DNA from: Candidatus Omnitrophota bacterium
GTDB taxonomy: Bacteria > Omnitrophota > Gorgyraeia > Ghiorseimicrobiales > Ghiorseimicrobiaceae
Assembly (NCBI GenBank): GCA_030681595.1
Contig: JAUXSB010000036.1
Span: 1-62,016, forward strand
Length of the DNA: 62,016 bases
Direction: 5' to 3'
Each line of letters starts with the position of its first letter. The first letter of the stretch is position 1. Positions 8,304 to 46,019 of this stretch are shown here, piece after piece. The notes beneath the pieces were generated by a model. That model was not told where the DNA came from, did not search any database, and worked only from the letters and a program-made list of their open reading frames with translations. A program made the translations under genes and the position numbers.

Positions 8304-9350
8304 TTAAAGAGCCAGGCCTATAGCAGTAGCCAATAATGAACTTTTGGCTTCGGCTTCTTCTCTTAATGCCGGATTCCGTAATTTAAAATTACCGGCCGGA
8401 CTCCAAAAACTTATTTCTACTTCTAAGCTGGAACTAAAAAATTCATCAATGTCTTTTAGCCTTGCCCCTCCACCGGATAAATATAGCCGGGAGATCTTTT
8501 TTTGGGTCAACCTTTCACAATAATCAAATGAAAGGCGTACCTCATCCAAAATTCCGTTTAAGTTTGAATTTACTATTGTGCTGGCTTCGCTGGACTTATC
8601 CTGGATATTACGCTTTAACTCCTCCGCAGACTTTAAGTCCATATTCATCCTCTCGGAAATTGCCCTGGTTAACTCATAGCCGCCCAGCATGATATCCCGC
8701 GAGAAGCGCACAATATTTTTCTCTAGCACCAATAGCTTAGTAACCTTATGGCCCATGTCCAATAAAGCAACGGGTACATTACCTTTTGCTGAGGCAAAAT
8801 TAAGATGCTGGAAAGCCTCTAATATGGCAAAGCAATCAACGTTTATAGAGCGTGCCGTAAAGCCTGCTTGTTTAACCATCTCTACCCTCTCGGCGATTAT
8901 ACGGCGCTCAGCCCCCACCACCAAAATTAACATCTGGTTATCCAGCGATTTATCCAGCACCTGATAGTCAATAACCATATCTTCCAGCCTGCCGGGGATA
9001 TGTTTGGTTAATTCAAATTCCAATGAACTAATCAAATCTTTCGGGGCCATCTTAGGCATTAACATATAGCGGGTGATGATATTTGTGCCGGAAAAAGAAA
9101 GGTTAACCCCGCCAGAAGTTATGCCGGCAGATTCTACACACTGCCTTATTGCTGCAACAATCGTATCCTTGGGGCTGCCCTCGGCTATGTCTAGAACGGA
9201 AAAAGTAAGCTGGGATTTTTTTTGAGGCCATTTCTTCTTTACCTCTGCGGCCTTAATGCTAAAGGTACCGATATCTAAACCAAAGACGCCGGAAGACACT
9301 GTTTTTTTAGGAGAAAATATATCCTGAATTTTCTTAAAATCAATCTTCAT
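8304..9350 (-). CDS. pilM: type IV pilus assembly protein PilM (actin-like ATPase fold)
   Basis: 348 aa. VFGLDIGTFSIKAAEV phosphate-1 motif, a later LDMGHKVT, and LYLSGGGARL near the C-terminus. Confidence 0.85.
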   Translation of the reverse strand: MKIDFKKIQDIFSPKKTVSSGVFGLDIGTFSIKAAEVKKKWPQKKSQLTFSVLDIAEGSPKDTIVAAIRQCVESAGITSGGVNLSFSGTNIITRYMLMPKMAPKDLISSLEFELTKHIPGRLEDMVIDYQVLDKSLDNQMLILVVGAERRIIAERVEMVKQAGFTARSINVDCFAILEAFQHLNFASAKGNVPVALLDMGHKVTKLLVLEKNIVRFSRDIMLGGYELTRAISERMNMDLKSAEELKRNIQDKSSEASTIVNSNLNGILDEVRLSFDYCERLTQKKISRLYLSGGGARLKDIDEFFSSSLEVEISFWSPAGNFKLRNPALREEAEAKSSLLATAIGLAL

Positions 9351-16484: not shown

Positions 16485-16498
16485 CTATTTGTCTCCCG

Positions 16499-16575
16499 CT
16501 TCAAGCTCCAAGCCGTATGTTTTAAGCCTGAAGCTTGCGGCTTTGGCTAATTGGAAGCCAAACCACTGCCCTCTG
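16499..16575 (-). repeat. two adjacent word hairpins: a CAAGC/GCTTG type, plus a GGCTTTGGCT..AGCCAAACC unit related to the terminal tandem repeat
   Basis: cttcaagctccaagccgtatgttttaagcctgaagcttg, followed by ggctttggctaattggaagccaaaccactgcc. Compare ggctttggctaagcggaaagccaaaccattgcc at 61909-62016. Confidence 0.75.
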
Positions 16576-16589
16576 GCTTGCGGCTATGA

Positions 16590-18428: not shown

Positions 18429-18490
18429 CTCTGCCTCGTTTTTAACGCATAACACACTTGCCCGCCGAAGCTTTGTGGCGGGTAGCGCGG

Positions 18491-20371: not shown

Positions 20372-20417
20372 TGCTACATCCTTTGTTCTATTAATTTTTC
20401 GCTTTTCATTTTTAATT

Positions 20418-21311
20418 TTACTGTATCCCCACCCCACCCATGGTACTTGTGCCCGCGCCGGATATGGTGACTGAACCAGTGATAATACTTCTATTTAAAC
20501 CTGTGTTGCGCGAGGCATCGGTAAAATTATAGCTGTATCCGCCTTTAATAGTTACGCCTTGGCCGATAGTAACGTTTTCCCATGTCAAGGTTTCTGCGGA
20601 AATCCTAATCTCATGGTCATTGGTTGCCGCGGTAAGATTATCTACCGCTGATGGCGACTCAAGCGGAGAATCAAGCGTATCATGCAACCTTTCTATTTCC
20701 ACAAAAGCCCTTGTCGCCGGGATTACCTTTACCAAAGCCAGCGATTTTATTCTGGCGAGCTGGGTTAAAGTTACCTGGTCCTTAATGCTACCGTCGCTAT
20801 TATATACTTTGCCCGTTGACCTTACCCAAAGGCGACCCGGGACAAAAGTATTAGCACTAGCTACGGTCTTACCAAATGCTATCTTCACCGTATACTTACC
20901 GACAGAATTTGCCGCATCGGGAAAATCCACATCAACATAAAAATCTTGGTAATCAGAACGGATATCGCTGGGGTCATCCGGGTCTGTGCCGGCGGAAGAC
21001 GGACTAGGCACTGCGGCGGCCACCCTATTAATCTTATTGTTAGAATTAGCTACGGTGCCGTTAGCCGCGCCGCCTGTCCCATCTGCCCAGCTTTTATCTT
21101 TGTCATACTCGCAGGATAAATCAATAAACGCCTGCTCAAGGCCGGCTCTGGCGATATATTCAGCAGAGCCTGTAGCCATTTCATGCTCCGCTCTCTTGCG
21201 CTCGCTGATAGTCATCGCCACATAGGCGGTCAAAAGGGCGCTTACCATCGTTACTACGATGATCGCCATAATTAACGCCATACCCTTATTGTTCTTTCTT
21301 GGTTTATTCAT
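20418..21311 (-). CDS. PilX-like minor pseudopilin
   Basis: 297 aa. N-terminal KGMALIMAIIVVTMVSALLTAYVAMTI hydrophobic helix typical of the PilX_N domain. Lies in a pseudopilin gene row. Confidence 0.6.
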   Translation of the reverse strand: MNKPRKNNKGMALIMAIIVVTMVSALLTAYVAMTISERKRAEHEMATGSAEYIARAGLEQAFIDLSCEYDKDKSWADGTGGAANGTVANSNNKINRVAAAVPSPSSAGTDPDDPSDIRSDYQDFYVDVDFPDAANSVGKYTVKIAFGKTVASANTFVPGRLWVRSTGKVYNSDGSIKDQVTLTQLARIKSLALVKVIPATRAFVEIERLHDTLDSPLESPSAVDNLTAATNDHEIRISAETLTWENVTIGQGVTIKGGYSYNFTDASRNTGLNRSIITGSVTISGAGTSTMGGVGIQ

Positions 21312-21389: not shown

Positions 21390-22058
21390 TTAGTTCCTAA
21401 AATCCACCCTTGCGGACATGGGTACGCTCAAAGCGGGAATATTACCCCTTTGCATTGCTTTGCTTGCGATTACGGTTATGGTCAAAGAATTTCCGGATAA
21501 GGTAAACTGTACACTGCTAATATCGTTGGCTAAAATCCTTCTTTTAGATATATCCAGGCCTCCTCCTGACGAAAAATTATCCCTGATAAACTGGTTTGGT
21601 TTACTGTCAGTACCTACATAATACTTAAGCTGGCCGTTTAGGTTAGTCCCAGATTCGCCTCCATCGCCCCAGACAATATTGCCTAAAGCATCTATCCCTT
21701 GAGACCCCTTTAGCGGTATCATAAAAGCTATTTCGCTTACCAAAACACCCTCTGAAAAAGGAACATTATAGGCAGGGGGCGGGCTAGGATTCAACGTAGC
21801 GGTATCGTATACCCGCGCCTTGCTGGAAAGGCCAAGCTCGCCAACCATCTTACTTAAGGCCTGATTTGCCTGCGCGGAAAGATAAGCTTTAGTAGTACCC
21901 ATACTCAGCGAGATATCATAAATACGCATTGCGCCGAAGGTAACGCCGGAAACAATGGTGAGGATAGAAACGGTCACCAGAATTTCCATAAGAGTAAATC
22001 CTCTTCTTCGTTTAGCGTTTAGCGTATAGCGTATAGCGTATAGTAAAGAATAAATCAT
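21390..22058 (-). CDS. pseudopilin with prepilin-type N-terminal cleavage/methylation domain
   Basis: ...AKRRRG/FTLMEILVTVSILTIVSG is the class III signal peptide (G|F, Glu at +5). It has an unusually long 20-aa leader, MIYSLLYAIRYTLNAKRRRG. Confidence 0.8.
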   Translation of the reverse strand: MIYSLLYAIRYTLNAKRRRGFTLMEILVTVSILTIVSGVTFGAMRIYDISLSMGTTKAYLSAQANQALSKMVGELGLSSKARVYDTATLNPSPPPAYNVPFSEGVLVSEIAFMIPLKGSQGIDALGNIVWGDGGESGTNLNGQLKYYVGTDSKPNQFIRDNFSSGGGLDISKRRILANDISSVQFTLSGNSLTITVIASKAMQRGNIPALSVPMSARVDFRN

Positions 22059-22063
22059 TTTAC

Positions 22064-23623
22064 CTACTCTCTCCCCAAATAAACCTGTGACGGATAGCCC
22101 CGGCTAGCAAGTATCCCGGTAACGTGCACCGGCGAATCTAAAAAGCCGTTTCCGTTAACGTCTTCTGTTTCCGCGCCGGCTCCAAAAGTATCCAATCCGC
22201 CATTTAATGCCTTAGGCAAATCTTCACTGGCATATCCTTGCTTGCCATTGTCTTCGCCGATAATTCTTCCTTTGTTATCCCGAAAAGCGACCGTGATATC
22301 TACCTGATACATCCGGTCCGCGCCGTATGACATCCAATTATTCCCGGTAACTCCGCCGCCGAGTATCCAAAGCCTGCCATAAAAAACAACCGCGTCAAAG
22401 CCACCGGCTGCCCAGGAAGGAACAGCGGAAAGAATCCATTTTATACCATCCGAGGAATACCAAATTTGCCTAAGGTTAGTAGCGCCATCATTACCGCCGA
22501 CAACCCAGATTTTTCCGTCCAAGACAACCGCCCGATGCATGTATCTCGGGATCCAGGCAGCGTTGGCTACCTGCGTCCAGCTTACCCCATCTGAAGAATA
22601 CCAAACATCATTAAGATAACCGCTACTGCCCTTACCGCCTAAAACCCAGATTTTGTTATCAAAGACCACCGCGGCATGATGATATCTCGCGCTCCAGGCA
22701 GCGTCGGCAACCCGTGTCCAGGTCGCTCCATCTGAAGAATACCAAACATCATTACGGTAGCCGCTAGTATCCCGGCCGCCGAATACCCAGATTCTCCCAT
22801 CATATACAAGTGCGGTATGCCCGTCTCGCGCGGTCCATCCTGCGTTAGAAGTTTTCGCATACCATGCCTGCTTGCCATCAGCTAAATCGGCATCACTAAC
22901 CTCCGGCGTATACCAGACATCATTTAACAGGTTTCCCCAGCCCATATCGCCGCCAAGAATAAAAATTCCATTATCAAAATTCACGGCGGGAAAAGAGAAT
23001 CTGCCGGGCCATATGCCTGAACCCAGCGGAGTAACATCAAAAACTAAGGTTTGCACCCAAGCCCAAGTCTTAGCATCGAAATAATGACGGTTATCATAAA
23101 CGATACCGCACTCATTGCCGCCAAGTACCCAGATTTTTGCACCGGTTGTGCTATCACCTTGCGTTACTACAGCGGCGGGATTATAAATATAGGCATCAAC
23201 AGTAAGATTCGGGCCTGCTGTCCAGGTATCATAAATATCCGTAAGCCTGATATTCCCCATGGCGTATTTATTATTTGCGCTATCGCGCAGTGGAAAAATC
23301 CGATTTATATAGAGCATCTCTGCCGTGTCTCCGTCGCCGTCAATATCAGTTACGTCCATTTGATTTGTATCATACCAATCAAAAAGCTTGCGGAAATTCA
23401 TTGCCCGCATTTCCTCCAGCTTCGCCTTTGCTGCCTGTAAAACTGTGGATTGCTTCTGGGTAGTTTCGCTTAAATTTTGGGTAACATTAAAAGAAGTTAA
23501 TGTGGCGGTAAGAAAAACGATCAAAATACCCATAGAAGCAAGGGTCTCAACGAGGGTAAAACCGCTTCTTCGTTTAGCGTATAGCGTATAGCGTATAGCG
23601 TATAATAATAGGCCCGCAGTCAT
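22064..23623 (-). CDS. pseudopilin carrying a large Kelch-type beta-propeller insertion
   Basis: Leader MTAGLLLYAIRYTLYAKRRSG/FTLVETLASMGILIVF (prepilin motif). Then about six Kelch-like blades, e.g. DGRIWVFGGRDTSGYRNDVWYSSDGATWTRVADAAWSARYHHAAVVFDNKIWVLGGKGSSGYLNDVWYSSDGVSWTQV... Asp-rich loops DIDGDGD and EDVNGNGFLD. Confidence 0.8.
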   Translation of the reverse strand: MTAGLLLYAIRYTLYAKRRSGFTLVETLASMGILIVFLTATLTSFNVTQNLSETTQKQSTVLQAAKAKLEEMRAMNFRKLFDWYDTNQMDVTDIDGDGDTAEMLYINRIFPLRDSANNKYAMGNIRLTDIYDTWTAGPNLTVDAYIYNPAAVVTQGDSTTGAKIWVLGGNECGIVYDNRHYFDAKTWAWVQTLVFDVTPLGSGIWPGRFSFPAVNFDNGIFILGGDMGWGNLLNDVWYTPEVSDADLADGKQAWYAKTSNAGWTARDGHTALVYDGRIWVFGGRDTSGYRNDVWYSSDGATWTRVADAAWSARYHHAAVVFDNKIWVLGGKGSSGYLNDVWYSSDGVSWTQVANAAWIPRYMHRAVVLDGKIWVVGGNDGATNLRQIWYSSDGIKWILSAVPSWAAGGFDAVVFYGRLWILGGGVTGNNWMSYGADRMYQVDITVAFRDNKGRIIGEDNGKQGYASEDLPKALNGGLDTFGAGAETEDVNGNGFLDSPVHVTGILASRGYPSQVYLGRE

Positions 23624-23674: not shown

Positions 23675-23694
23675 TTCTTGTGTGCATTGCTTCC

Positions 23695-23780
23695 TTCGGC
23701 AATTCAGCCATCCGCCAACGTACTGTGGTGGATCTGTAATTTTGCGCCCCCTGATTACTCAGGGTTTGCCTTTTCGAGAA
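23695..23780 (-). promoter_or_regulatory. candidate c-di-GMP-I (GEMM-I) riboswitch aptamer
   Basis: Minus strand: AAAAGGCAAACC CUGA-GUAA-UCAG GGGGCGCAAAAUUACAGAUCCACCACAGUACGUUGGCGGAUGGCUGAAUUGCC. It has the GGCAAACC core, a 4-bp helix capped by a GNRA tetraloop, the GGGRCGCAAA junction and a second bulged helix, as in the V. cholerae Vc2 aptamer. Confidence 0.65.
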
Positions 23781-23995: not shown

Positions 23996-25210
23996 TTAAT
24001 GCCCTAACTTCTTAATAATCTCCAGGATCGGCAAAAACATCGAGAGGGCAATCGTGGCAACTATGCCTCCCAAAAAAATGATTAACAACGGCTCTATTAA
24101 AGACATTAAAGCCCCGATAGCCGCATCCGCTTCACTTTCATAAAAATCCGCGATTTTATCCAACATCGGCGAAATACTACCCGTTTCCTCCCCCACCGTA
24201 ATCATATCTACAACCAGGGGGGCAAAAACGCCCTTGCCTGAGGCTTTAAGCGAATCACCGATTTTTTCACCCCGCGAAACCCGGGCCCTGGCACCCATAA
24301 GCCCTTTTTCTACTACCATATTATCAGCAGTTTTGGCTACTATTTCTAATCCATTAATGATGGAAATACCGCTCTTAACCAAGGTGGCCAAGGTGCGGGC
24401 AAAACGCGCGATCACTACCTTAAGGATAATATTGCCGAACACCGGCGTCTTTAAACACGCCCTATCAAAATTATAGCGGCCGGTTTCGCTACGGACATAC
24501 AGCCTGAGGGCAATAACAATCGCGGCTATCGCTGCCAAAAGATACGGATAAAACCCGCGGATAAGATCGCTTATCTTAATTACTATCTGCGTAGGCAGCG
24601 GCAGTTCGATTTGCAGGGAAACAAACATCTCCCGAAACGATGGGATTACTTTAATAAAAATAAAGGATGTGATTAAGACCGACATAGCAACTACTATCGC
24701 CGGATAAATTAAAGCCCCCTTCAATTTACGGGCGAGCTTATCTATTTCTTCTAAGTAACCGGCCATTTTTTCTAAGATCAAATCCAAGGCACCCCCCATC
24801 TCGCCGGCCTTGACCATATTGACATAGATAGAAGAGAATACGCGCGGATGAGCCGCCATTGCCTCAGAAAGGCTGCGCCCGGATTCAATATTAACCTGCA
24901 GGGAGTTAACCATCTTTTTTAAAGTCTTGTTTGTTACCTGATCATGGATAATGCTTAATCCTTTAACTAGAGGCACCCCGGCTTTAACCAGTGTGGCAAG
25001 CTGGCGAGAAAACACTACCAGCTCATTTAGCTTTACCCCTTTTTCTCTGCTAAGAAAAGACATGCCTTCGGCTTTTATTTCGTTAACAGAGACGATTGTT
25101 ACCGGCTCCTTTCTTAAAAAAGAAATGACGCTGGCACGATCGCGGGATTCTACTTCGCCTTGAATACGCTGGTTTTTGACATTAATAATACTATATTTAA
25201 ACTTGGACAT
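23996..25210 (-). CDS. pilC: type IV pilus / T2SS platform protein PilC (GspF family)
   Basis: 404 aa. Duplicated GspF domains and three TM segments. Motifs LATLVKAGVPL and LATLVKSGISI. Confidence 0.9.
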   Translation of the reverse strand: MSKFKYSIINVKNQRIQGEVESRDRASVISFLRKEPVTIVSVNEIKAEGMSFLSREKGVKLNELVVFSRQLATLVKAGVPLVKGLSIIHDQVTNKTLKKMVNSLQVNIESGRSLSEAMAAHPRVFSSIYVNMVKAGEMGGALDLILEKMAGYLEEIDKLARKLKGALIYPAIVVAMSVLITSFIFIKVIPSFREMFVSLQIELPLPTQIVIKISDLIRGFYPYLLAAIAAIVIALRLYVRSETGRYNFDRACLKTPVFGNIILKVVIARFARTLATLVKSGISIINGLEIVAKTADNMVVEKGLMGARARVSRGEKIGDSLKASGKGVFAPLVVDMITVGEETGSISPMLDKIADFYESEADAAIGALMSLIEPLLIIFLGGIVATIALSMFLPILEIIKKLGH

Positions 25211-25211: not shown

Positions 25212-26840
25212 TTATCCTTCCGGGGTTACCCGCATAATCTCTTCTACGGCGATTTCTCCTTTTAAGGCCTTCTCTATGGCGTCCTCTCTTAGCGTGCGCA
25301 TGCCGTGCGCGCGGGCGTAAGCTCTGATTTCATCTAACGGTGCCCTCTTTAATATCATCTGCCGCACAACATCATCCACGCTTAACGCCTCCACCACAGC
25401 AACCCTTCCCAAATAACCGCTCTTATTGCAGGCATCGCAACCCGCCCCGCGATAAAGTACGACATTTTTCTCTAAAACAAACGCCGATAAGCCGGCAATG
25501 CTTCCGGTGGGAACCTCATACGGCTCTTTACATTTTACGCAGATTTTACGCGCCAAGCGCTGGGCCGCGACTAAAATTAAAGTGGAAGCAATAAGAAAAG
25601 GCTCAACCTTCATGTCCATAAGCCGCACTATCGCGCTGGGCGCGTCATTAGTATGCAGGGTGCTTAAGATAATATGCCCTGTCAGGGCTGCCTTCATTGC
25701 TATGTCCACAGTTTCATAATCACGAATTTCTCCGACCATTATTACGTCGGGGCTTTGCCTCAATACCGCCCGAAGGGCCGCGGCAAAATTAAGGCCGATA
25801 TCCGGTTTTACCTGTATTTGCGTCAACCCTTTCATCTGGTATTCTACCGGGTCTTCAACGGTAACTAAATGTTTGTGGGGAGTATTTAGCCTGCCCATAA
25901 TGGAATAAAGCGTGGTAGATTTTCCTGAACCGGTGGGGCCGGTCAAAAGAATCATCCCGTATGGCTTGCTTGCTGCCTCTGTAAATGCCTCCAGCGCGTA
26001 AGTAGAAAACCCCAGCCTTCCTAAATCCATAGACATGCTGGTTTTATCCAAAATCCTTAAAACTGCCTTCTCCCCGAAATGAACGGGTAAAATGGATACG
26101 CGGAAATCCACCTCCTTGTCTTTTAATTTTAAAGAGAACCTGCCATCCTGCGGCGTGCGCCTTATGGTTATGTCTAAACCCGACACAATCTTAATCCTGG
26201 CAATGATAGCCGCGGTATTCTCGCGAAATAACGGGGTACGTTCCTGCATAATACCGTCTATACGGAACCTTAAGCGCAACACATCCGAATACGGCTCTAT
26301 GTGAATATCACTTGCGCGTAAATCAATCGCATCTTTAACAATATTATTAACCATGTTGACTATCGCGGCGTCTTGGCTAACCCTGATTATTTCTTTAATA
26401 TCAAGGCCCTCCTCATCAACAGCGGCAGGCTTCCAAATAAGCTCAAGCTCTCTGTCTTTCTTAAGCGTTTCCTCGCCGATTAACAGGTCTATTACCAAAG
26501 AGCTATAATAATCATCCTGCGATTTTTTGATTTGAGGGGCGGTAGCCACCACCGGCTGGATATTGCACTTGGTAATAATCTTGAGGTTATCCAGCACAAA
26601 CACTTCAAAAGGGTCCACCATTGCAACAGTCAAAACCATCCCCATTTTTGCCAAAGGCATAATGCGGTAACTGCGCGCGAGATGTTCGGGAACAGCCTTT
26701 AAAACATCCGTGTCTACTTTATATTTAGCCAGATTTATCGGGGGGAAACCAGAATCTTCAGAAACGGCGATTAATTCCCTCTGTTCTTCGGAGACCTCTT
26801 GTAAATCAACAGCTTTTGGTTTTTTGATTCCTTCTTTCAT
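25212..26840 (-). CDS. pilB: type IV pilus assembly ATPase PilB (GspE family)
   Basis: 542 aa. T2SSE_N-type N-terminal domain, Walker A GPTGSGKST, Asp and His boxes, and the C-terminal CxxC..CxxC cluster (CVKCKEPY ... CDACNKSGY). Confidence 0.9.
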   Translation of the reverse strand: MKEGIKKPKAVDLQEVSEEQRELIAVSEDSGFPPINLAKYKVDTDVLKAVPEHLARSYRIMPLAKMGMVLTVAMVDPFEVFVLDNLKIITKCNIQPVVATAPQIKKSQDDYYSSLVIDLLIGEETLKKDRELELIWKPAAVDEEGLDIKEIIRVSQDAAIVNMVNNIVKDAIDLRASDIHIEPYSDVLRLRFRIDGIMQERTPLFRENTAAIIARIKIVSGLDITIRRTPQDGRFSLKLKDKEVDFRVSILPVHFGEKAVLRILDKTSMSMDLGRLGFSTYALEAFTEAASKPYGMILLTGPTGSGKSTTLYSIMGRLNTPHKHLVTVEDPVEYQMKGLTQIQVKPDIGLNFAAALRAVLRQSPDVIMVGEIRDYETVDIAMKAALTGHIILSTLHTNDAPSAIVRLMDMKVEPFLIASTLILVAAQRLARKICVKCKEPYEVPTGSIAGLSAFVLEKNVVLYRGAGCDACNKSGYLGRVAVVEALSVDDVVRQMILKRAPLDEIRAYARAHGMRTLREDAIEKALKGEIAVEEIMRVTPEG

Positions 26841-26991: not shown

Positions 26992-28212
26992 TCATTTAGT
27001 AGTTACCCTTACCACCTCTTCCATTGTAGTTATGCCCCCCGCCGCTAAGCTCACCGCGATCTCCCGTAAAAGAATCATCCCTTCTTCCCGGGCGCACTTA
27101 CGGATTTCTGATTCGGGAGCGTTAGAGATAATGAGTTTCCTGATATTGGGGCTTACTTCCATAGTTTCTGCCAAGGCGACCCTGCTTTTATATCCGGTAT
27201 TATTACATCCAACACAGCCTTTGGCTTTATACAGCTGCGACACCTCTTTTATTCTCGGGTTTTCCGCTTTAATTCCGGCGGCCACCTCCATGGATACCGG
27301 ATACGGCTCTTTGCATTCGGAACAAAGCGTCCTCAATAAAACCTGGCAGGAAATTAAAAGGCAGGACGAGCTAATCAGAAAAGGTTCCACCCCCATGTCT
27401 CTTAGCCTTATCATGGCGCTGGAGGCAGAGGTGGTATGCAGAGTAGAAAGCAAAAGGTGCCCGGTTAAAGCCGCCTTAACCGCGATATCCGCCGTCTCAG
27501 AATCGCGAATTTCTCCGATAAGAATAATATCGGGGTCCTGTCTTAATATTGAGCGAAGCGCAGATACAAACGTAAGCCCGATGCTCTCCTGAACCGCCAC
27601 CTGATTTATCCCGGATAATTCATATTCAATCGGGTCTTCAACAGTAAGGATATTGGTCTCGACTGAATTAATAAAATTTATTGCCGAATAAAGCGTGGTA
27701 GTTTTGCCGGAGCCTGTCGGGCCGCAGACTAAAATCATGCCGAACGGCTTAATTAGGTTGCGCTTAAATAAAACGAGTGTCCTCTCATCAAACCCCAATT
27801 TATTTATATCTAAAATTATCTTTGATTTATCCAAGACGCGCAAGACTATCTTTTCCCCCATGCTCGTAGGAACTATTGAGACGCGGAAATCCACATCACG
27901 CGCCTGAAACTGCATACGGAACCGCCCCTCCTGCGGCAGGCGGTGCTCGGCAATATCCAGGCCTGCCATTACTTTAATGCGGCTGACTATGCCCGAATGG
28001 AATGAAACCGGCAGAGTTATACGCTCATAGAGGATGCCGTCTATCCTATAACGAATCCTCACCGCTTCAGGGTCCGGTTCTATAAAAATATCACTGGTTT
28101 TCTGGTCTATACCGAGAGCTAAAATTTTGGTCACCGCTTTTACCGTTGGCCCATGCGCAACTATGGACTTAGAAATATCCTGTTCAAGTTTTTTAGATTC
28201 CTCCTGCTCCAT
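26992..28212 (-). CDS. GspE/MshE-type secretion ATPase lacking its N-terminal regulatory domain
   Basis: 406 aa. Walker A GPTGSGKTT, Walker B/Asp box, His box, tetracysteine CSECKEPY ... CVGCNNTGY. The start ATG overlaps the end of the upstream MshEN ORF by 20 nt and has its own SD, AGGGAG. Confidence 0.88.
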   Translation of the reverse strand: MEQEESKKLEQDISKSIVAHGPTVKAVTKILALGIDQKTSDIFIEPDPEAVRIRYRIDGILYERITLPVSFHSGIVSRIKVMAGLDIAEHRLPQEGRFRMQFQARDVDFRVSIVPTSMGEKIVLRVLDKSKIILDINKLGFDERTLVLFKRNLIKPFGMILVCGPTGSGKTTTLYSAINFINSVETNILTVEDPIEYELSGINQVAVQESIGLTFVSALRSILRQDPDIILIGEIRDSETADIAVKAALTGHLLLSTLHTTSASSAMIRLRDMGVEPFLISSSCLLISCQVLLRTLCSECKEPYPVSMEVAAGIKAENPRIKEVSQLYKAKGCVGCNNTGYKSRVALAETMEVSPNIRKLIISNAPESEIRKCAREEGMILLREIAVSLAAGGITTMEEVVRVTTK

Positions 28213-28651
28213 AATTCTCCCTTTGCGCCTTCTTTAATTCTGAAGGCGTAGTAACAAAAATTTTTATCTTCAGGCCCAGGGCTTCCTCTAAGCCCTTAAG
28301 CGAATCTTCATCTAGCGGGTTTAACATCGCCACGGTAAGAATGTTGCCTATCCTGTCTACGGGCATGATATTAAATTTTTCGGCGCTTTCTTGAGGAACG
28401 AGCGTTAGGGTTTCCTCATCGATAGAACAGTTGGCAATCTTGATATAGGGATAGCCCAATTGCATTGCCAAAGCGCTGTAAATTTCCTCCTCGGTGACAT
28501 AACCTAAATCGCTTAAGACTTCGCCTAAAACCTTCCCCTTGCACTTGGTGCGCTGCAAGATTAATGCCTCTTCCAGGCGTTCTTTAGTAATTACGCCTTT
28601 TTCTAAAAGGAGTTCACCAAGCCGGGTTTTTAATCTTCGTTTTGGCGGCAT
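28193..28651 (-). CDS. stand-alone T2SSE_N / MshEN domain protein (predicted c-di-GMP receptor)
   Basis: 152 aa. RLGELLLEKGVITKERLEEALILQ matches the MshEN motif RLGxx(L/V/I)(L/V/I)xxG(L/V/I/F)(L/V/I)xxxxLxxxLxxQ exactly. A second, degenerate copy follows (VLGEVLSDLGYVTEEEIYSALAMQ). Confidence 0.75.
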   Translation of the reverse strand: MPPKRRLKTRLGELLLEKGVITKERLEEALILQRTKCKGKVLGEVLSDLGYVTEEEIYSALAMQLGYPYIKIANCSIDEETLTLVPQESAEKFNIMPVDRIGNILTVAMLNPLDEDSLKGLEEALGLKIKIFVTTPSELKKAQRENYGAGGI

Positions 28652-28662
28652 ATCTTATGGGC

Positions 28663-28818: not shown

Positions 28819-31800
28819 TTATTTAATTTTCCTGCTTAATACTTTTTTTATCAAGAGCTGCATCTCTTTATTTTTTTCAATCTCAAGCAAACCGGATAAA
28901 ACATCGTCGGAATTTTTAGTGCCTATTACGCCCAGCGCTGACACCGCCTGCCGGCGCAACTCTAAATCTTCATGGTAAAGAAACGACTCAATTGCTTCAG
29001 ACAAACCCTCCTTGCCGAGGTAGCCGGCCAACTCCAGAAGAATCGACAGGTTTTCCTTGTTTTTTTCCTCGGACAAATATTTCTTTACTTTAACCAAGGC
29101 TGTCTCGCCCATTTCTTTTAAGACTGCGGCTACGCGTTTACGCATCGCATATCCCTCAAAAGAATCTTTGGCAATTTTCTTTGCGCTTAAGCAGATATCT
29201 AGCAGCGCATCGCAAGAAGCGCTACCTAAAATCTCAAGTAACGCTTTTACCCGTTTAGGCTCAGCCTGAAAATAATCCAAGATAACGGCAACCAGCATCT
29301 CCAAAAAGTTAACCACTTTTAATGTGCTTTGAATAAAGGTTGTTATCGCGCTATATAGGGCGGTATCTTCGGGAGCCTGAGATTTAAGCCTCTTCTCCAG
29401 GATGCTAAAAACCTCGGCAATAAACACCGCGTAATCTTTCCTAGAAGTCTTCTCTACGACCAAATACAACTCTTCCGGCTCCAGGCTTTTCATAAAGTCT
29501 TCGCTTAGCCATTTTATAATATCTAATATTTCGCTATAAACTTTGGGGTCGGCCTCAACCCTTAATATTTCAAGGAACACCTGGCATCTGCTTAAAATAT
29601 GGGTATCTTTACATATAAATTCTTTAATAATTTTGCTTATTTTTTTATGCGTCTCCAGATCGCTGGCTAAAGCTTTAAGCATAAATGATTGAATCAAGCT
29701 TTTAAACCCCGGGGTATCCTGCCCGTAAAACAGCTCTTCCATAAAGGCGCCGACGAGGCTTAAATCAATTGTCGCAAACTCTTCTTGCGGTAAATCGAGA
29801 AGGGCCTTTAACCTTTTCTCTCTCGCAAGCTTATTCCAACCGGACTTGCTACAAAGCGAGCCGACAGTCTCTTTATCCATCCCTAATTCCGTAAGCTTTG
29901 CCTCGACCAACGGCAGGACCTCCCGTTTTTTAGCCGCGGACGGCGTAGCCTTATCAATTAAATCTTTTACCACTAAAGGGTTATCTGAACCCTCGCGGAT
30001 ACTGCGCTCTATAAGGCTGACGATCTCCTGCGCGGAGAGCTTATTGATAATCTCTTCGGTAATGTTTGTTTTATTGGAAGAGGTTATCTGCGGCTTTAGG
30101 CGGATAAACTTAGCCTTCAGTTTCCAGTCCAATTCCTGAATAACCTTAGCTAAATTCTCTACCGCCTCGGAGGCGGCAAGGCGCTCAACAGGAATTTGCG
30201 CGCTGATTTTTTTTATCGTTTCGGCAAGCACATTAATTTCACCGGTTTTATCTTGCTTTCCGCTGGAGGCGGCAATTTTACTTATAGCCTCCGCAAACTT
30301 CCGCGGCTCCTCGGCGATCTTGGAAAGAAAGCTTTTTTTATCCACATCATCGTGGCCGACCTTACCGAGGAGAAACTCCATCATCATCGCGTCTTCAAAC
30401 TTCTTGCGTGGCCCTGCCCTGCCCAAGCTAGATTTGGCAATTTCTTCATAACTAAACTCATCTATCCTGATATGGGCCAGCCTTTTTTCCTGAATAACCG
30501 CCTTCCATATATTCTTATTCGTCGCTGAGCGCCTTGGCTGGCTAAAATTATCTAAAAATATACTTACTTCTTCTTCGTTAATACCCTGAGTAAATGAAAG
30601 GGATTTTATGTTGCTTTCTACCATAAGAGAAATAAAATCTCCTTCGCCTAATTCCTGAATCTCACGCAAAGAAAAACGCCTGCCGTTTATTACAAGGCTG
30701 TTTCCCGATTCGATAATCTCTAATCTCGGCGTATCTTGCAGGATCAACTCCAGGCTATGGTAAATATCCATCACGAAATTGTTGCGTATAGAGCTACCCG
30801 TGGGGTAAAGCTGAAAATTCTTTACCGCCGACTGGGTCAATTTTATCAGCCGGGATATCTCGACTCGCGTCAGCGCAACCAGCTCTAATTTAATCTCTTT
30901 CTCTTCTCCTGTTTTTATTGCTCTGGCGGCAAATTCCTTGAGGTAATCAACGACTTCTGCCGGATTGAATAGATCCGAGGCCCTTTCTTCTAGGAGGCGG
31001 CCGTATTTGTCGGAAATAACTCCGGCGGCGGCCTTTCCAAAATGCAGCGAAAGATCAGCCGCCACATCGGATAAATCATCCTCGTGCTCTGAGGCCAACA
31101 TCTCGCCTATTTTCTGATGCAGGTTTTTTTGCTCTTCTTCGCTTAACTCGTTATACAGCGCGTCCTGTATCCCGCTGCTAATAAAATTAAATTTGCCGAT
31201 TTTCTCCGACTCTTTTACCAAATGCTTCTTCTTCGCCCGGGCCATTACTTCAAATATGTAACCTTCGTTTTTTTCGCCTAATTTTTTAAGTAAATCGACA
31301 CTAAAGTCTTCTCCGATAACCGCTGCCTGCACTATCAGCTCCTTAGTTTCTTTATCCAGCGTCTTTACCCGCCTCTTAATAGTTTCTTCCAATGAATTGG
31401 GTATATCTATTGCCTCAAGGCCCGCGGCCAGGCCCCATCCGTTATCTTTATAAACTAAAAGCTTATTCTCCGCCAGCGACTTAAATATCTCCTCAATAAA
31501 AGCCGGGTTTCCTTTAGTGATCTCAAAAATAGAGTCGCTTAATTCCTTGATTTGTTTTAAGCCGGGGAACATCGCTTCAATCATCTCACGCGTATCGCGT
31601 TTAGCTAAATCCGGTAACGGTATTTCTATGGCATTTTCGCCGTTATGCAGATATTCTAACAACTGCGCAAGGGCGCTTTTTTCTCCCCGCTCAACAACAG
31701 GTTTGCCTTTTAAGGTAGCTATGGCCAATATTTTTCTTTTCTTCTCGTATTTAATGAGGTAATGCAATAATTCTATGCTGGCGTTATCCGCCCACTGCAA

Positions 31801-32865
31801 ATCATCAAAATAGAGGATCAACGGATTCTTAGAATTTATCGCGATCAACAAATCCAACATTGACTTAAACAGTAACGCCCTTGCTTCTTTGCCTGCCAAG
31901 GACGATCTTGCGCCCTCTATCTGCGGAAGCAATTTAGCCAATTCGGCTAATTCATCTTCGGGGAGAATAGAGATGAGTTCTTGGGCCTGCAGGCTATGCG
32001 GGCGTATATTGCTTAAATAATTATCTAGTGCTGCGGCAAAAAGATAATAAGGGTCTTCCGCATGTTTGTGAGCGCCTTTGGCGGTAAGGACTACCGCCTC
32101 ATTTTTGGCATAATTACTAAACTCTTCCGCTAACCTGCTCTTCCCCGTGCCTGTCTCGCCGTAAATAAGAACGGCGGTTAAAAGGCCCTTGCTTAAAACC
32201 GTACCGCTATATGCCTCTTTAAGCTTCGCCATCTCGGTATCTCTGTCAATAAATTTTGGGCAAGGAAAAAAATCCAGGGCCATCTGGGTAGCCGCGCTCT
32301 CCAGAGTAACTTCCTGCGAATACGAAATTTGGTTTTTCCCTTTTTCCTTAGATAAATAGAGGGCCTTATCGGCAAGGTCTATCAGCTTATCTACCTCGGT
32401 AGAATCAGCCGGGCAAAGAGAAAAACCCATGCTTATAGTCAGGCGTATCTCCTGCCCATCTTTAGCCCGGAAAGATGTTTGGGCTATTTGTTCAACTAAA
32501 CGCTTTCCCAGGCTTAGTCCCGTCTCTTTGTCAACTCCGGGGAGTAATACCATAAACTCATCTCCGGCGTAGCGTATTACCATATCAGTCAGCCTGCGGG
32601 TTTTCTTCAGCGCTTCAGAAAACTGTTTTAAAATTTCGTCTCCGGAAAGATGCCCGCATGTGTCATTTAACTCTTTAAAATTATCTATGTCTATGATAAA
32701 TACTCCCAAAGAATAATCGCTGAATTGCGATTTTTTGATTTCCTGGGGAAGAAACTCGTAGAGGTAATAACGGTTAAATAACCCCGTCAGAGGATCAATA
32801 AAGGTGGGTTTTTCAAAACGGATGTCTTTAACCGGTTCCTGAGGGCGCAATTTCTCATTGTCCAT
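28819..32865 (-). CDS. GGDEF (diguanylate cyclase) - STAND/AAA_16 NTPase - helical/HEAT-repeat protein
   Basis: 1348 aa. N-terminal GGDEF domain (DPLTGLFNR, DIDNFKELNDTCGHLSGD, RYAGDEF with RLTD five residues upstream, which is I-site-like). Walker A GETGTGKSRL and Walker B LILYFDDLQWAD. Long alpha-helical region ending in HEAT-like repeats (EDLELRRQAVSALGVIG). Confidence 0.8.
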   Translation of the reverse strand: MDNEKLRPQEPVKDIRFEKPTFIDPLTGLFNRYYLYEFLPQEIKKSQFSDYSLGVFIIDIDNFKELNDTCGHLSGDEILKQFSEALKKTRRLTDMVIRYAGDEFMVLLPGVDKETGLSLGKRLVEQIAQTSFRAKDGQEIRLTISMGFSLCPADSTEVDKLIDLADKALYLSKEKGKNQISYSQEVTLESAATQMALDFFPCPKFIDRDTEMAKLKEAYSGTVLSKGLLTAVLIYGETGTGKSRLAEEFSNYAKNEAVVLTAKGAHKHAEDPYYLFAAALDNYLSNIRPHSLQAQELISILPEDELAELAKLLPQIEGARSSLAGKEARALLFKSMLDLLIAINSKNPLILYFDDLQWADNASIELLHYLIKYEKKRKILAIATLKGKPVVERGEKSALAQLLEYLHNGENAIEIPLPDLAKRDTREMIEAMFPGLKQIKELSDSIFEITKGNPAFIEEIFKSLAENKLLVYKDNGWGLAAGLEAIDIPNSLEETIKRRVKTLDKETKELIVQAAVIGEDFSVDLLKKLGEKNEGYIFEVMARAKKKHLVKESEKIGKFNFISSGIQDALYNELSEEEQKNLHQKIGEMLASEHEDDLSDVAADLSLHFGKAAAGVISDKYGRLLEERASDLFNPAEVVDYLKEFAARAIKTGEEKEIKLELVALTRVEISRLIKLTQSAVKNFQLYPTGSSIRNNFVMDIYHSLELILQDTPRLEIIESGNSLVINGRRFSLREIQELGEGDFISLMVESNIKSLSFTQGINEEEVSIFLDNFSQPRRSATNKNIWKAVIQEKRLAHIRIDEFSYEEIAKSSLGRAGPRKKFEDAMMMEFLLGKVGHDDVDKKSFLSKIAEEPRKFAEAISKIAASSGKQDKTGEINVLAETIKKISAQIPVERLAASEAVENLAKVIQELDWKLKAKFIRLKPQITSSNKTNITEEIINKLSAQEIVSLIERSIREGSDNPLVVKDLIDKATPSAAKKREVLPLVEAKLTELGMDKETVGSLCSKSGWNKLAREKRLKALLDLPQEEFATIDLSLVGAFMEELFYGQDTPGFKSLIQSFMLKALASDLETHKKISKIIKEFICKDTHILSRCQVFLEILRVEADPKVYSEILDIIKWLSEDFMKSLEPEELYLVVEKTSRKDYAVFIAEVFSILEKRLKSQAPEDTALYSAITTFIQSTLKVVNFLEMLVAVILDYFQAEPKRVKALLEILGSASCDALLDICLSAKKIAKDSFEGYAMRKRVAAVLKEMGETALVKVKKYLSEEKNKENLSILLELAGYLGKEGLSEAIESFLYHEDLELRRQAVSALGVIGTKNSDDVLSGLLEIEKNKEMQLLIKKVLSRKIK

Positions 32866-33073: not shown

Positions 33074-33625
33074 CTAGATCCAGCCGGCGACAATCTCAGA
33101 CAAAACTACGATATCTTCGGTGCAGAAGATTTTGGCAATACTGCGGTCAAAATGAATATTTGCCTCCGGCTCGAACTCGGAATCGCCGCGCCACATATTA
33201 ATTAAAAGCGGGATGCTTTCAAATGTTTCTATGACAATGCTGACGTCGGCCAGTTGCGTCCTTTTTGCCCCAAAACGCTCCAGCAATTCCAAGAGCCCGT
33301 CGGGATTTGTGCCATATTTACGCAATATCCGCGCAATTACGCGCTTTTTAAAGGTAGGGTAATAGCCGATGCTGCCCGGTAATTCTTGAAAAGAAATCCA
33401 CTCGCCGGTTAAGACAGGAAGGCCTTTAAGCGACTGGATAAGATAATGCAGAAGGACAATCGTTATGTGGTCTTTTGCCGGGACATTACATGCGAGAGAA
33501 AGAACCCGTCGCTTTTCCATATCGATGCTGTAATTATCCGCCAAAAAAGAAACGGCAGCCTCGTTTTTTTGAACAAGGCTGCCTAGCTCTTCCCACGCTT
33601 TGGATAATGCCGCATCATAAGGCAT
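33074..33625 (-). CDS. DUF3786-like protein
   Basis: 183 aa. ...ITIVLLHYLIQSLKGLPVLTGEWISFQELPGS..YYPTFKKRV... and ...IPLLINMWRGDSEFEPEANIHFD resemble the DUF3786 pattern as I recall it. No functional inference is possible. Confidence 0.45.
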   Translation of the reverse strand: MPYDAALSKAWEELGSLVQKNEAAVSFLADNYSIDMEKRRVLSLACNVPAKDHITIVLLHYLIQSLKGLPVLTGEWISFQELPGSIGYYPTFKKRVIARILRKYGTNPDGLLELLERFGAKRTQLADVSIVIETFESIPLLINMWRGDSEFEPEANIHFDRSIAKIFCTEDIVVLSEIVAGWI

Positions 33626-33634: not shown

Positions 33635-34327
33635 TTATTCGTATTTTATGTCGTCGAGATAAAAAATAACACCGTCGGGGTTAACATCTATATTGGTCGA
33701 CCAGACAAATCCTCCGATAATATGCGTTAGGTCTCTGCCTGATAAATCTATTGTGTATTGCTTCCATTCGCTAGTCAATGTCAGCGGGCCGACACCGGCA
33801 GTATCGGAATCCGAATATTCTCCGGAAATACCCCCCATTTTAATCTCTTGGATTACCTCGCCGCCTTTTTCGCCGCGAATCCAGAAAGTAAGTTTAGTCG
33901 CGCCGCCTAAATCATGGGATTTATCTACCCCGCCCCAATTATTTGCCGGGTACTGCCAGTAAATCCCTGCCCAGCGCGCCCCGCCTGTTGCTTTACTATT
34001 GTAGGTAACTTTAATACAAGTTGCGCCGCCGTGCGGATTATCGCCTGAGGCGTCTTCAAATTTTATATCCATATAATCACCCATCCAGCCCGAAGGAATA
34101 AAGTGATTGTCCGGTGAAGACTTATCCGAATATACCGGAAAAACCTTAAACGCGCCCTTTTCTGCCGGCACAACAGCCCGCTGCTCAACCGGCACAGCCG
34201 GCGTAGATACGACCATTGATGCCTTTTCTTCGGACGGAACACTCCTTGTTTCTTCGCCCTTGTTGCCGCCGCAACCCGACATCCACACTAAAAACACTAA
34301 AGATAGTACCCCTATTAGTTTTGCCAT
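33635..34327 (-). CDS. lipoprotein with C-terminal carbohydrate-binding-module-like beta-sandwich
   Basis: Lipobox LVWMSGC. The C-terminal region (ATCIKVTYNSKATGGARWAGIYWQYPANNWGG...TFWIRGEKGGE...WKQYTIDL) looks like a CBM/CIA30-type jelly roll. Confidence 0.5.
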   Translation of the reverse strand: MAKLIGVLSLVFLVWMSGCGGNKGEETRSVPSEEKASMVVSTPAVPVEQRAVVPAEKGAFKVFPVYSDKSSPDNHFIPSGWMGDYMDIKFEDASGDNPHGGATCIKVTYNSKATGGARWAGIYWQYPANNWGGVDKSHDLGGATKLTFWIRGEKGGEVIQEIKMGGISGEYSDSDTAGVGPLTLTSEWKQYTIDLSGRDLTHIIGGFVWSTNIDVNPDGVIFYLDDIKYE

Positions 34328-34573: not shown

Positions 34574-37500
34574 TTAGTTAAAGGCGAGTTTTACCTCTCT
34601 TAAATCCTGGCTGGCTTGGAGGACTGTAAAGAACCGGCTTGCTTCTTCGTCTAATTCTTGCCGCTGGCTTAATTGACTTAATAACTCTAAGATAGCCGCC
34701 TTCTGGGTAAGGTCTTTAATGAGGCCATATTTTACAAAAGATATTATTTCGTGGACATGTAGCAGGGCCAAGCTATCCCAGCCTTGATTTAAAGCCCTTG
34801 TTGCGCGCAGGATTTTTACGTCCGCGGCGTTAAGGCTAGATACATATTTTTCGTCTTTAAGGATTAATTCTATTTTGCTTAGGTCGATACCGCCTTTATC
34901 CGCCTCCGATAAACCACTATCTCTGTATGTTTGTAACGGCATTATTCTATTTAGTGACGCTTCATTTTCCCCGGCTAACGCCGCGGTGGATTGCTCATCA
35001 GGCGTGTTTTGAATAGTGGCGAGTTTTTTAAAATCATCCACGACGCTTGTGATATTTTGATATTCTGCTTCGCCAAAACGGGCCTTTGCTTGGCTTAATT
35101 TTTCCTTTACCTTAGCGATAAACGCTTCAAGCTCTTTTACTTTTTCGCCACCGCTAAAATTATCTTTTATTATCGCGCTCAGCAATTCTTCCCGGTCGTC
35201 TTCCTGTATCAACCCTCCGGGCAAACTTAAGGCCTTTAGGGCTGTTTCTTTCAGCGCTTCCGCAACCTGCGGAACCATGCTTAATTCTTTGCTTAATCTA
35301 CCCTGGCGCTTTAAATAATCCAATGTATTTAAAAAATCGCCTGCCGCTTTATCCATCGACAAAGGAGAAAAAGCAAGGCTGCTGCCATCTTTTTTTAACA
35401 CCTTTCCTTCGCTATCCAAATCAAACACTAATGTATTTAAGCCGCGTTTGGAGAATCTGTAGCCCCGGCTATCCAATAAGACGACCAGCTTATCAAATGC
35501 GCTATCATTAACCGAAAACTCGGCGCTTGCTTCCTGCGCTGTATTCCTTACTCTCTCCCAAAAATCACTATAAGGCTTAAAAAGATTTTCATACCCGAAA
35601 CCCCCGGCAAGCATTCCGTTTTTAGAAAACACGGCCTCTGTTCCTAAAGCCACCGGAACAAGCTTAAGGCCGGCATCGGTTTTTTGGTTTTTGTAAACCA
35701 TAAATTCCATTAAAGGAGCAAGCCCTTGCCCGGAAGCCTTATTGCCTATAAGAATATACCCGCCTTCTTTTACATTTTTTGCCAATATGCCCAATACTTC
35801 ATTTTCCCGCCCCTTATAATAATCCATACCGTTAAAGAAACGCACAACATCCGCCTTTTCTTCCAAGGCCAGATTAAACAAATCACCCTCTTTGAATTTT
35901 AAATTCGCAAGCTCATAATCTTTAAAAGGGCTGACGATTCTTTTATTACCATTTTCATCTTTGAAAACATTGTTTTTAATCAAAAGCTCCCTGCGCCTTA
36001 AAACATTCTCTATCTCTTCCGGAGACAAAGAATCACTTCCCGCGTATCCATATAAGAATTGTTCGTTTGCGTCGAAAAAAGCAACAATCTCTTCACCCAA
36101 ACCAAGCGGCCTTCCGGACATGTCGGTATAAATCTCTACTGTTTCCTGCGGGATAATACGGTCCATGCCTATAACATTTGCCCGTCCGCCCAAAGCCGCG
36201 GCCAACTCATTTGTAGTCGCGGGAATACGGCCCATACCAATATCTAAAACCACGGGCTTGCTTTCCTCATTCCCAGGCTCATCTTTAAGCAAGCTGCTGA
36301 TGTAAGGGTGTGTTGCCGCTAATCTCTTTTCGTAAGTTGTTCCGGGGGTTAAATGCCCTATTTCACGCTCGTCTATTTTTCTAGAGGAATAAGCATTAAC
36401 GATCCTCTCGGCGGTTTTAAGATTCCCCTCCGCGGATAATTTTAGCAGATAAACATCGCTTGCTTCTATATTCTCTATTTTATTAAATCCGTCGAGCGCC
36501 TCTCGATAAAGCGGCAACGCGTCTTTAAACGCTCCTACTGACATATATCTGTTTGCCCGCCCAAGGATCTCCTCTGCCCCCGAGGAAACGGATTGCGTTT
36601 CGTTATTCGCCAGCGGCGAGCCGGCAGCGGCATTTTTTAACCTTAAATTTTTAAACGGAATATCTAAAACAATTTCTTTTCTGCCGTCATCTTTTATTAG
36701 CGCAGAAAGCCTGCCGCCAACCTTATTCAGAGATCTTTCTACAGCGCTTAAGCCTTCGCCTAATCCCCCCAGGCCGCCGTATTTTGCCTTATCATCAGCG
36801 GTGAGCTGTTCGGGGCTTAAGCCGTTATCAATAAAGCTGATTTTTAAATTATCTTCTTCTATTTTAAAAGACGCCTCTATCTTTCCGGCATATCCTTGCG
36901 GCCTTAAAATACCTTTTTCCTTTAAGTAGTCTTCCTTGTAAAAAAAGTTGACGGCATCAGAGGCATTTTTTCCAATCTCCCCTAAGCTTTCTTTTAAGTT
37001 AAAATCATTTTTTGGGTCAAGAAAAGACGGGTCATACTCGACAGGCAAAGAGGAGATAAATTTATTCATCTGATATAGATAGATTTTTTCCCGCGGGAAA
37101 AACTCAAGCGGCTTGCTTATAAAATCGGCTAAGGCATTCTTTATCTTTAATCCCTCCCCGTTTATACTGCCCGGGACAAAAAGGTTAGATTGTTTCTTGC
37201 GGGATAATATATATTCTATTCTTTCACCAATGCTCGGGTGGGTCTCCCTGTCCTTTATTCTTCCCTTAATCAGCCCGGCTTTTTCTGCCTCGTCAAATAA
37301 TTCGGGCGTCCTTTTAAGTATACTTACCGCGTCTTCAATGCTATGGCCCTCTTTTTCTATCAGCTCGACTGCCCGCCAATCCATATTATGCTCTTTTTGT
37401 TTTACCGCTTTTATTTTTTCTTTTTCCGGCTTAAATAATCCACTAAAGGTATTTTTAATATTTTGGAATACGCTCGCATTATCGCTATTTTCTAGCTCCG

Positions 37501-38995: not shown

Positions 38996-39129
38996 AGTTA
39001 AATAATTTAAGTATAATAAGGCTATATATAAATATACCACATTTTTGCGGCGGGTATAAGAGGATAGGAAAGTTTCGAAGAAAGCGCTTTCAAAGAAAAA
39101 CCCTAACTGTAAAAAATTAGAGTTTTATT

Positions 39130-41965: not shown

Positions 41966-46019
<4,054 letters not shown>

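Follow-up and report, generated by a model that had tools for sequence, protein, structure and literature searches.

A free MshEN protein encoded beside an N1-less PilB-type ATPase in type IV pilus operons of Omnitrophota

Gene content of the locus

Here we describe a pair of overlapping genes in a type IV pilus operon of Candidatus Omnitrophota bacterium, one encoding an MshEN domain, a module known to bind cyclic diguanylate (c-di-GMP), and the other an assembly ATPase without such a domain. The stretch of DNA analysed, hereafter the window, comprises 62,016 nucleotides (NCBI GenBank assembly GCA_030681595.1, contig JAUXSB010000036.1, positions 1 to 62,016), and all coordinates refer to it unless a related locus is named. 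The pair sits within a conserved five-gene cassette on the minus strand, which begins with a gene for a 1348-residue protein (28819..32865) with an N-terminal GGDEF domain, an AAA_16/STAND NTPase module and C-terminal HEAT repeats, here called the AGDEF-STAND-HEAT protein. There follow the gene of the free, complete MshEN protein of 152 residues (open reading frame 1, ORF1; 28193..28651), which has a four-helix MshEN_N part and an alpha/beta MshEN_C part and is predicted to be a c-di-GMP receptor, and that of a PilB1-type member of the PilB/GspE class of assembly ATPases (406 residues; 26992..28212), which consists of the N2 and C-terminal domains (CTD) only and has no N1/MshEN domain. A second PilB paralogue of the PilB2 type (542 residues; 25212..26840), the N terminus of which is MshEN_C only, without the c-di-GMP motif, and the platform protein PilC (404 residues; 23996..25210; Pfam T2SSF, E = 1.2e-58) complete the cassette. 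Beyond it lie a c-di-GMP-I-GGC riboswitch-like aptamer (23694..23779, minus strand; Rfam RF03167), placed between pilC and the pilin-like genes, and then the remaining operon, which encodes a Kelch-repeat pilin-like protein, a second pilin-like protein, three beta-helix proteins, PilO, a secretin, a TPR protein and PilM (8304..9350). No PilT gene is present in the window.

The MshEN and ATPase genes overlap by 20 nt (28193..28212, minus strand; ATGGAGCAGGAGGAATCTAA), the ATPase being read in the +1 frame with respect to ORF1. A Shine–Dalgarno-like AGGGAG (28217..28222, minus strand) can be read in the sequence 4 nt ahead of the ATG of the ATPase gene. Both the out-of-frame overlap and the ATPase's own ribosome-binding site had been noted in an earlier reading of these letters alone (the original prediction), and both are borne out. 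The two genes, part of a type IV pilus operon, give two real proteins that are translated separately, and the stop/start overlap is consistent with translational coupling between them.

A complete MshEN domain as a separate protein

The published MshEN motif, RLGxx(L/V/I)(L/V/I)xxG(L/V/I)(L/V/I)xxxxLxxxLxxQ, occurs as two tandem 24-residue copies (PMC5013675). The original prediction had recognized one exact and one degenerate copy in the 152-residue ORF, and this is indeed what it contains. Motif I (residues 10–33; 28553..28624, minus strand; RLGELLLEKGVITKERLEEALILQ) satisfies every specified position, while the looser motif II (residues 41–64; 28460..28531, minus strand; VLGEVLSDLGYVTEEEIYSALAMQ) keeps L2, G3, L6, G10, V12, L21 and Q24 and deviates at the four positions 1, 7, 11 and 17. 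Across 30 homologues, G12, L15, L26, L30 and Q33 of motif I are invariant, as is G43 of motif II, in which L42, L46, L61 and Q64 are conserved. The two motifs are separated by seven residues (RTKCKGK, including the invariant K40) rather than by the five of the 53-residue unit by which the MshEN domain is defined.

Profile searches identify the domain. The NCBIfam model of the 53-residue c-di-GMP motif, NF053729, matches ORF1 at 63.6 bits against a cut-off of 38 (model positions 1–53), and the Pfam MshEN family (PF05157) matches residues 65–150 with E = 1e-17. A sequence search of the PDB returned the N-terminal domains of PilF, PilB and MshE (5HTL, E = 7.6e-18). An AlphaFold2 model of ORF1 (predicted local distance difference test score 86.7) has helices at residues 11–65 followed by an alpha/beta part, and its best Foldseek match is 5HTL, the structure of MshE with c-di-GMP (E = 1e-11, template-modelling score 0.66–0.71, 141 columns); the GspE N1/GspL structures 2BH1 and 4PHT are among the weaker structural matches. 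Taken together, the NF053729, Pfam, PDB-sequence and fold matches reflect homology rather than chance. A search with ORF1 returned 53 homologues, nearly all of 145–154 residues, with identity down to 37%. The 152-residue protein is a complete MshEN carrying all the residues known to contact c-di-GMP, and we predict it to be a receptor for this molecule.

The N1-less ATPase and the second PilB

Residues 20–402 of the 406-residue ATPase match Pfam T2SSE with E = 1.1e-126, and its motifs are intact: Walker A (GPTGSGKT), the Asp box (TVEDPIEY), Walker B (DIILIGEIRD), the His box (GHLLLSTLHT) and the zinc motif (CSEC...CVGC). The original prediction had called this protein MshE-like, but the closest model is that of PilB, TIGR02538, and not one of MshE specifically. 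The match to TIGR02538 covers model positions 165–563 only and reaches 519.6 bits, below the cut-off of 675.65. The protein begins about 23 residues ahead of N2 and has no N1/GSPII region in the same polypeptide. About 75 homologues of 403–430 residues were found, every one with a named source coming from Omnitrophota, and fused homologues of 570–578 residues appear only from about 57% identity downwards.

The 542-residue PilB2 shares 49% identity with the 406-residue ATPase over N2 and the CTD. It aligns with ORF1 from ORF1 residue 48 onward only and has no match to NF053729. The model of TfpB matches both ATPases of the window.

Two cassette types among relatives

Gene contexts together with 59 loci from species-representative genomes were classified using purpose-built hidden Markov models (HMMs), and two arrangements emerged. 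The window's own arrangement, which we call type A, was found at 12 non-redundant Omnitrophota loci, including seven GTDB species representatives. Its gene order is the GGDEF/AAA_16/HEAT protein (1344–1418 residues), MshEN (149–153 residues), the N1-less ATPase (403–430 residues), PilB (538–566 residues) and PilC. Thus the search for the same split in related genomes, proposed along with the original prediction, gave a clear answer: the orthologues too are two genes, and are not always fused.

Type-B cassettes were found at about 30 loci, from Omnitrophota, some metagenome-assembled genomes labelled Planctomycetia, Auribacterota and Makaraimicrobium (e.g. L006 1962..9588, L028 35..7095 and L033 1245..8413). 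Here a small GGDEF-like protein is followed by a PilT-like ATPase of about 355 residues, an MshEN protein of 145–160 residues, PilB1 (about 575 residues), PilB2 (about 570 residues) and PilC, so that the free MshEN coexists with two full-length PilBs that retain their own N1 domains. The spacer between the MshEN motifs is seven residues long in 11 of 11 type-A proteins and five in 26 of the 27 free proteins of type B. Going by these loci, the free-MshEN family is conserved in Omnitrophota and neighbouring candidate phyla.

The two cassettes also carry different GGDEF proteins. A gene of the 1348-residue type lies directly upstream of the free MshEN gene in every type-A locus. In the window's protein, Pfam places GGDEF at residues 22–179 (E = 4.2e-42), AAA_16 at 205–372 and HEAT_2 at 1262–1332, and the NCBIfam GGDEF model TIGR00254 scores 154.8 bits. 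The signatures RxxD-x5-AGDEF (with the RxxD I-site), DxDxFKxxND and GHxxGD are present in all 12 orthologues, with AGDEF in place of GGDEF; AGDEF domains are active in one case, VCA0965 (PMC3974145), and reckoned degenerate in another, NbdA. The small GGDEF-like proteins of type B are without GG(D/E)EF, FKxxND and GHxxGD, and are probably not cyclases. The fusion of a GGDEF domain to a STAND module, as seen in the window's protein, is in itself an unusual architecture.

Free MshEN as such is not exotic, since MshEN-only architectures are numerous in metagenomes, as found in a profile search of 1.84 billion protein representatives; that search ranks by summed score, so that proteins with several MshEN domains dominate and single-domain ones cannot be cleanly counted. 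Many of the metagenomic proteins (e.g. P0174–P0179) have either three to eight tandem MshEN domains, reaching about 1,300 residues, or two MshEN domains and no ATPase. The diversity of MshEN-only architectures appears to be largely uncharacterized.

The predicted c-di-GMP site

Among mutants of the Vibrio cholerae MshEN, G11L no longer binds c-di-GMP, while binding is 72-fold weaker in G40I and about 10-fold weaker in Q32A or Q61A (PMC5013675, supplement). We tallied the residues at the c-di-GMP-contact positions of V. cholerae MshE in four groups of proteins. The free MshENs keep these residues almost without exception, with G11, G40, Q32 and Q61 each in 11 of 11 type-A proteins, and with G11 in 27/27, G40 in 26/27, Q32 in 27/27 and Q61 in 26/27 of type B. 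The N1 domains of the type-B PilB1 proteins have G11 in 8, G40 in 12, Q32 in 13 and Q61 in 1 of 21 (the last position being mostly Glu), and those of PilB2 have G11, G40 and Q61 in none of 22 and Q32 in 2. In each cassette, that of the window included, the free MshEN alone among the modules has its site fully preserved. The N1 domains of PilB1, though depleted in these residues, still pass the NF053729 cut-off, whereas two of three PilB2 N1 domains fall short of it, and only the N1 of PilB2 is clearly degenerate.

Origin of the two-gene layout

The original prediction left open whether the layout was natural or the result of a frameshift, and an out-of-frame overlap of 20 nt within a linker is what a 1-nt indel would be expected to leave, the more so as the ATPase frame is open for just seven codons upstream of its own ATG. 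The junction was compared with assembled contigs of two independent groundwater metagenome runs (X1 and X2). The X1 contig is identical to the window across the junction, and the X2 contig, a strain variant, differs over 27947–28700 by 16 substitutions without a single gap, the changes being mostly synonymous in both frames (synonymous/non-synonymous, 8/2 in ORF1 and 3/1 in the 5′ part of the ATPase gene). The layout is moreover kept in the 12 loci down to 41% identity of the MshEN and 58% of the ATPase, and these show five junction geometries: a 20-nt overlap (also in L007 and L009), an 11-nt overlap (L003), and gaps of 2, 3 and 57 nt (L016, L015 and L013, respectively), with frame offsets of 1, 0 and 2. 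AGGGAG or AGGGAA precedes the ATPase gene in L009 and L007 and is absent in L003. Junctions as varied as these cannot be explained by an assembly error or by a conserved recoding site, and the two-gene layout is a genuine, conserved arrangement and not a sequencing error or a broken gene; we regard a sequencing or assembly frameshift, or a recent pseudogene, as excluded for practical purposes. Programmed +1 ribosomal frameshifting or stop read-through, which would yield a fused MshE-like protein of 550 residues, is extremely improbable as well. The AGGAGG just upstream of ATC-TAA-A at the ORF1 stop loosely resembles the +1 site of prfB, but AGGAGG is missing from L007, L009 and L003, a shift from ATC to TCT permits no tRNA re-pairing, and the junction itself is conserved neither in offset (0, 1 or 2) nor in spacing (gaps of up to 57 nt). 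Frameshifting at AGGAGG-A-ATC-TAA-A was rejected on this last ground.

If both genes are real, their history could be that of a true fission, in which an ancestral full-length MshE or PilB1 was cut in the linker between N1 and N2, leaving the 152-residue protein as the ATPase's own former N1. The domain order, the adjacency and the same-strand overlap are as fission would leave them, the two lengths add up to 558 residues, near the 565–584 of full-length PilB1, and the break falls in the linker, ORF1 corresponding to PilB model positions 2–136 and the ATPase to 165–563. The sequences of the MshEN domains point elsewhere. In a competition between HMMs, all 11 type-A MshENs scored 143–161 bits on the model of the type-B free MshENs, against 101–117 bits on that of PilB1 N1 (a difference of 30–50 bits), 73–93 on PilB2 N1 and 121–134 on the N1 of PilBs from other phyla. 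The best non-self BLAST match of each of the 11 was likewise a type-B free MshEN, at 119–132 bits compared with at most 106 for any fused N1. In a neighbour-joining tree of MshEN domains (143 columns), the type-A proteins grouped in 82 of 200 bootstraps and the clade of type-A and type-B free proteins in 74 of 200, weak support that gives fission some room, while no bootstrap out of 200 joined the type-A MshENs to PilB1 N1. The ATPases are better resolved. In a tree of the ATPase core (383 columns) the N1-less proteins were monophyletic (97/100) and formed a clade with the type-B PilB1 proteins (93/100), and the window's 542-residue PilB was nearest to the PilB2 proteins of type B. As judged by this tree, the 406-residue ATPase is the orthologue of a PilB1 that keeps its own, different N1 in type-B loci.

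One type-B locus shows what a cut PilB1 looks like. In L049 (8476..10200), one in-frame TAG breaks PilB1 into a 145-residue MshEN and a 412-residue ATPase that are colinear with intact relatives; the TAG may be a nonsense mutation, an error of sequencing or a stop that is read through. On the PilB1 N1 HMM the detached N1 reaches 205 bits, and on the free-MshEN HMM 113, the opposite of the type-A proteins. Fission would also require the additional loss of the ancestral free MshEN, and we consider it unlikely. Since the type-A MshEN is closest to the free family and its ATPase is orthologous to an N1-bearing PilB1, the arrangement speaks for domain loss beside an older sensor rather than for fission. 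Of the natural domain split put forward in the original prediction, the separate genes therefore stand, being present at 12 loci, whereas the idea of one MshE-like gene cut in two is disfavoured by the HMM scores, the BLAST matches and the ATPase tree; as a history, the 'split of an MshE' is probably wrong. Most economically, the free MshEN would be old, and in the lineage of the window PilB1 would have lost its whole N1 and PilB2 the four-helix half of its own.

Proposed mechanism and its alternatives

We propose that c-di-GMP sensing had already shifted to the free MshEN when the redundant cis N1 of PilB1 was deleted. In the present-day system, the adjacent AGDEF cyclase would make c-di-GMP, or bind it at its RxxD site, and the free MshEN would bind the ligand in its four-helix bundle. 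The loaded MshEN might then recruit or activate the N1-less ATPase at the PilM/PilC platform through its MshEN_C (T2SSE_N1) face, supplying the N1 function in trans. GspE N1 binds GspL through the equivalent face. Coupled translation of the two proteins would fit the overlap of their stop and start codons. Regulation in trans by the free MshEN is what we infer from the sequences, and to the explanation as a whole (separate genes, loss of N1 beside an existing free sensor, and an MshEN that regulates the N1-less motor in trans) we assign a probability of roughly 70%.

A serious alternative, if an improbable one in our estimate, sees in the free MshEN a c-di-GMP-dependent regulator aimed mainly at a target other than the 406-residue ATPase. 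At PilM it might act as a competitor of the PilB2 MshEN_C, or as its helper, and so govern which of the two extension motors engages, or it might serve as partner or sink of the adjacent GGDEF protein. At about 30 loci the same MshEN family accompanies two full-length PilBs, so that its conserved role is not just that of a missing N1, and the free MshEN always adjoins a GGDEF-type protein, probably catalytically degenerate in type B. Two extension motors on one machine are, moreover, known in Acinetobacter baylyi (PMC11656802). Yet in type A the MshEN gene is always immediately upstream of the gene for the N1-less ATPase and often overlaps it, which fits a stoichiometric partnership between the two products.

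Several observations count against regulation of the N1-less motor in trans, or against the evidence on which the proposal is built. The presence of free MshEN where both PilBs are full length means that its target may be PilM, PilB2 or the GGDEF protein instead of the 406-residue ATPase, and the N1-less ATPases show no conservation over their first 20 residues, nor is a docking peptide evident. The type-B PilB1 N1 domains still pass the NF053729 cut-off, at 55–67 bits, and so may still bind c-di-GMP, which weakens the argument that sensing had been handed over before N1 was lost. In ORF1 itself, the seven-residue spacer and the first residue of motif II, which is not Arg, depart from V. cholerae MshE; AGDEF domains, for their part, may be active, as in VCA0965, or degenerate, as in NbdA. 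Because the MshEN-domain tree is weak, the choice of loss over fission rests mainly on the gaps between HMM and BLAST scores. Lastly, the evidence at the junction consists of assembler contigs rather than raw reads, and no RNA run containing the locus was found.

More tentatively, and as something we hold possible but doubtful, the type IV pili of Omnitrophota and neighbouring candidate phyla may have come under c-di-GMP control no longer through the motor's own N1 but through a free MshEN adaptor that is paired with its own GGDEF protein, with the adaptor selecting the one of two extension ATPases that is to engage the PilM/PilC platform; the lineage of the window, with one motor lacking N1 altogether, would then be the end state of this process.

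Comparison with known systems

The closest structural precedent is the MshEN of V. cholerae (5HTL; PMC5013675), which has the same two-subdomain fold, tandem 24-residue motifs and Leu/Gly/Gln contact residues as ORF1; the crystallized construct, residues 1–145 of MshE, is nearly the same length as the 152-residue protein, and the isolated domain binds c-di-GMP alone (PMC5013675). ORF1 differs in being a separate gene product, in its spacer of seven rather than five residues and in a motif II that starts with Val rather than Arg, and the two share 28–29% identity. The N2–CTD core and zinc motif of the 406-residue ATPase are those of Myxococcus PilB (3JC8), Geobacter PilB (5TSG/5ZFR) and Thermus PilF (6F8L), and ORF1 aligns end to end with the N1 domains of these full-length, c-di-GMP-binding ATPases; Geobacter PilB also has a seven-residue spacer. 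They carry N1 in cis (in three copies in PilF). Here the motor and N1 are distinct polypeptides, and the N1 of the orthologous motor is not the one to which the free N1 is most closely related.

Input of c-di-GMP to an extension ATPase through separate proteins in trans, as we propose, is known from the PilB–PilZ–FimX system of Xanthomonas and Pseudomonas (7LKM/7LKO; PMC8389850, PMC11656802). FimX and PilZ are the trans-acting inputs described for PilB (PMC11656802). There the sensor is a degenerate EAL protein, FimX, bridged by PilZ to an N1 in cis, while here the predicted sensor is itself of the N1 type and the motor has no N1. The pairing of an MshEN-type receptor with a neighbouring GGDEF protein has a counterpart in the local c-di-GMP module NfrB–DgcJ of Escherichia coli, where a dedicated diguanylate cyclase is encoded or acts beside the receptor (PMC8669469), and ORF1 matches the MshEN region of NfrB (NF008411); in NfrB this region has a glycosyltransferase as its fusion partner and polysaccharide as output, in contrast to the pilus motor considered here. 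Two paralogous extension ATPases for one pilus machine are found in PilB/TfpB of A. baylyi (PMC11656802), as in the window; both of those motors are full length, and no free MshEN is described for that system.

MshEN is known to be fused to many output domains, and the supplement to its description names proteins with MshEN_N only (PMC5013675). In full-text literature we found no description of a free, complete MshEN together with an N1-less PilB, nor of the cassette. The genomic survey of Omnitrophota reports type IVa pilus loci, with no mention of c-di-GMP or PilB, and the type IV pili of this phylum are thought to serve in attaching to host or prey cells (PMC10066038). For these pili the cassette flags a conserved c-di-GMP module, made up of the AGDEF-STAND-HEAT protein, the free MshEN and the riboswitch-like element.

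What N1/MshEN does in PilB-class motors is poorly understood, owing to the flexibility of the domain and its constant attachment to the motor (PMC11656802). In the present locus nature provides a system with a complete MshEN as a small protein of its own, predicted to be well folded, next to a motor without N1, so that two purified proteins would suffice to ask whether N1 docks the motor to the platform, acts allosterically on the hexamer, or does both. Should the adaptor reading be true, it would show by a natural example that a PilB-class motor's N1 can function as a separate subunit. For annotation, gene pairs of this kind should not be merged or flagged as a frameshifted PilB.

Other features of the operon and its surroundings

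The match of the riboswitch-like element to Rfam RF03167 scores 61.3 bits against a gathering score of 59. Related riboswitch matches were found in two of the loci compared, L013 (12434..12521; 64.7 bits) and L007 (9667..9745; c-di-GMP-I, 36.9 bits against 35). The 519-residue product of the gene at 22064..23623 (minus strand) combines an N-terminal pilin methylation motif with Kelch beta-propeller repeats and may be a pilus-tip adhesin; it is followed by a second pilin-like protein (21390..22058, minus strand). Within the pilus operon there are also three consecutive right-handed beta-helix/NosD proteins of about 620–650 residues (14631..20437, minus strand), two of which have a C-terminal domain like those of phage depolymerases.

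On the other side of the cassette, the genes at 34574..39040 (1488 residues) and 33635..34327 (230 residues), both on the minus strand, encode proteins with no Pfam match, and a DUF3786 protein is encoded at 33074..33625. In L001 and L007, too, the 230-residue gene is found upstream of the GGDEF gene; in L001 the DUF3786 gene separates the two. Farther away, gyrB (41966..45706, minus strand) contains an intein with an HNH endonuclease ahead of the Toprim domain (Pfam Intein_splicing, residues 458–881; HNH_3, residues 586–623).

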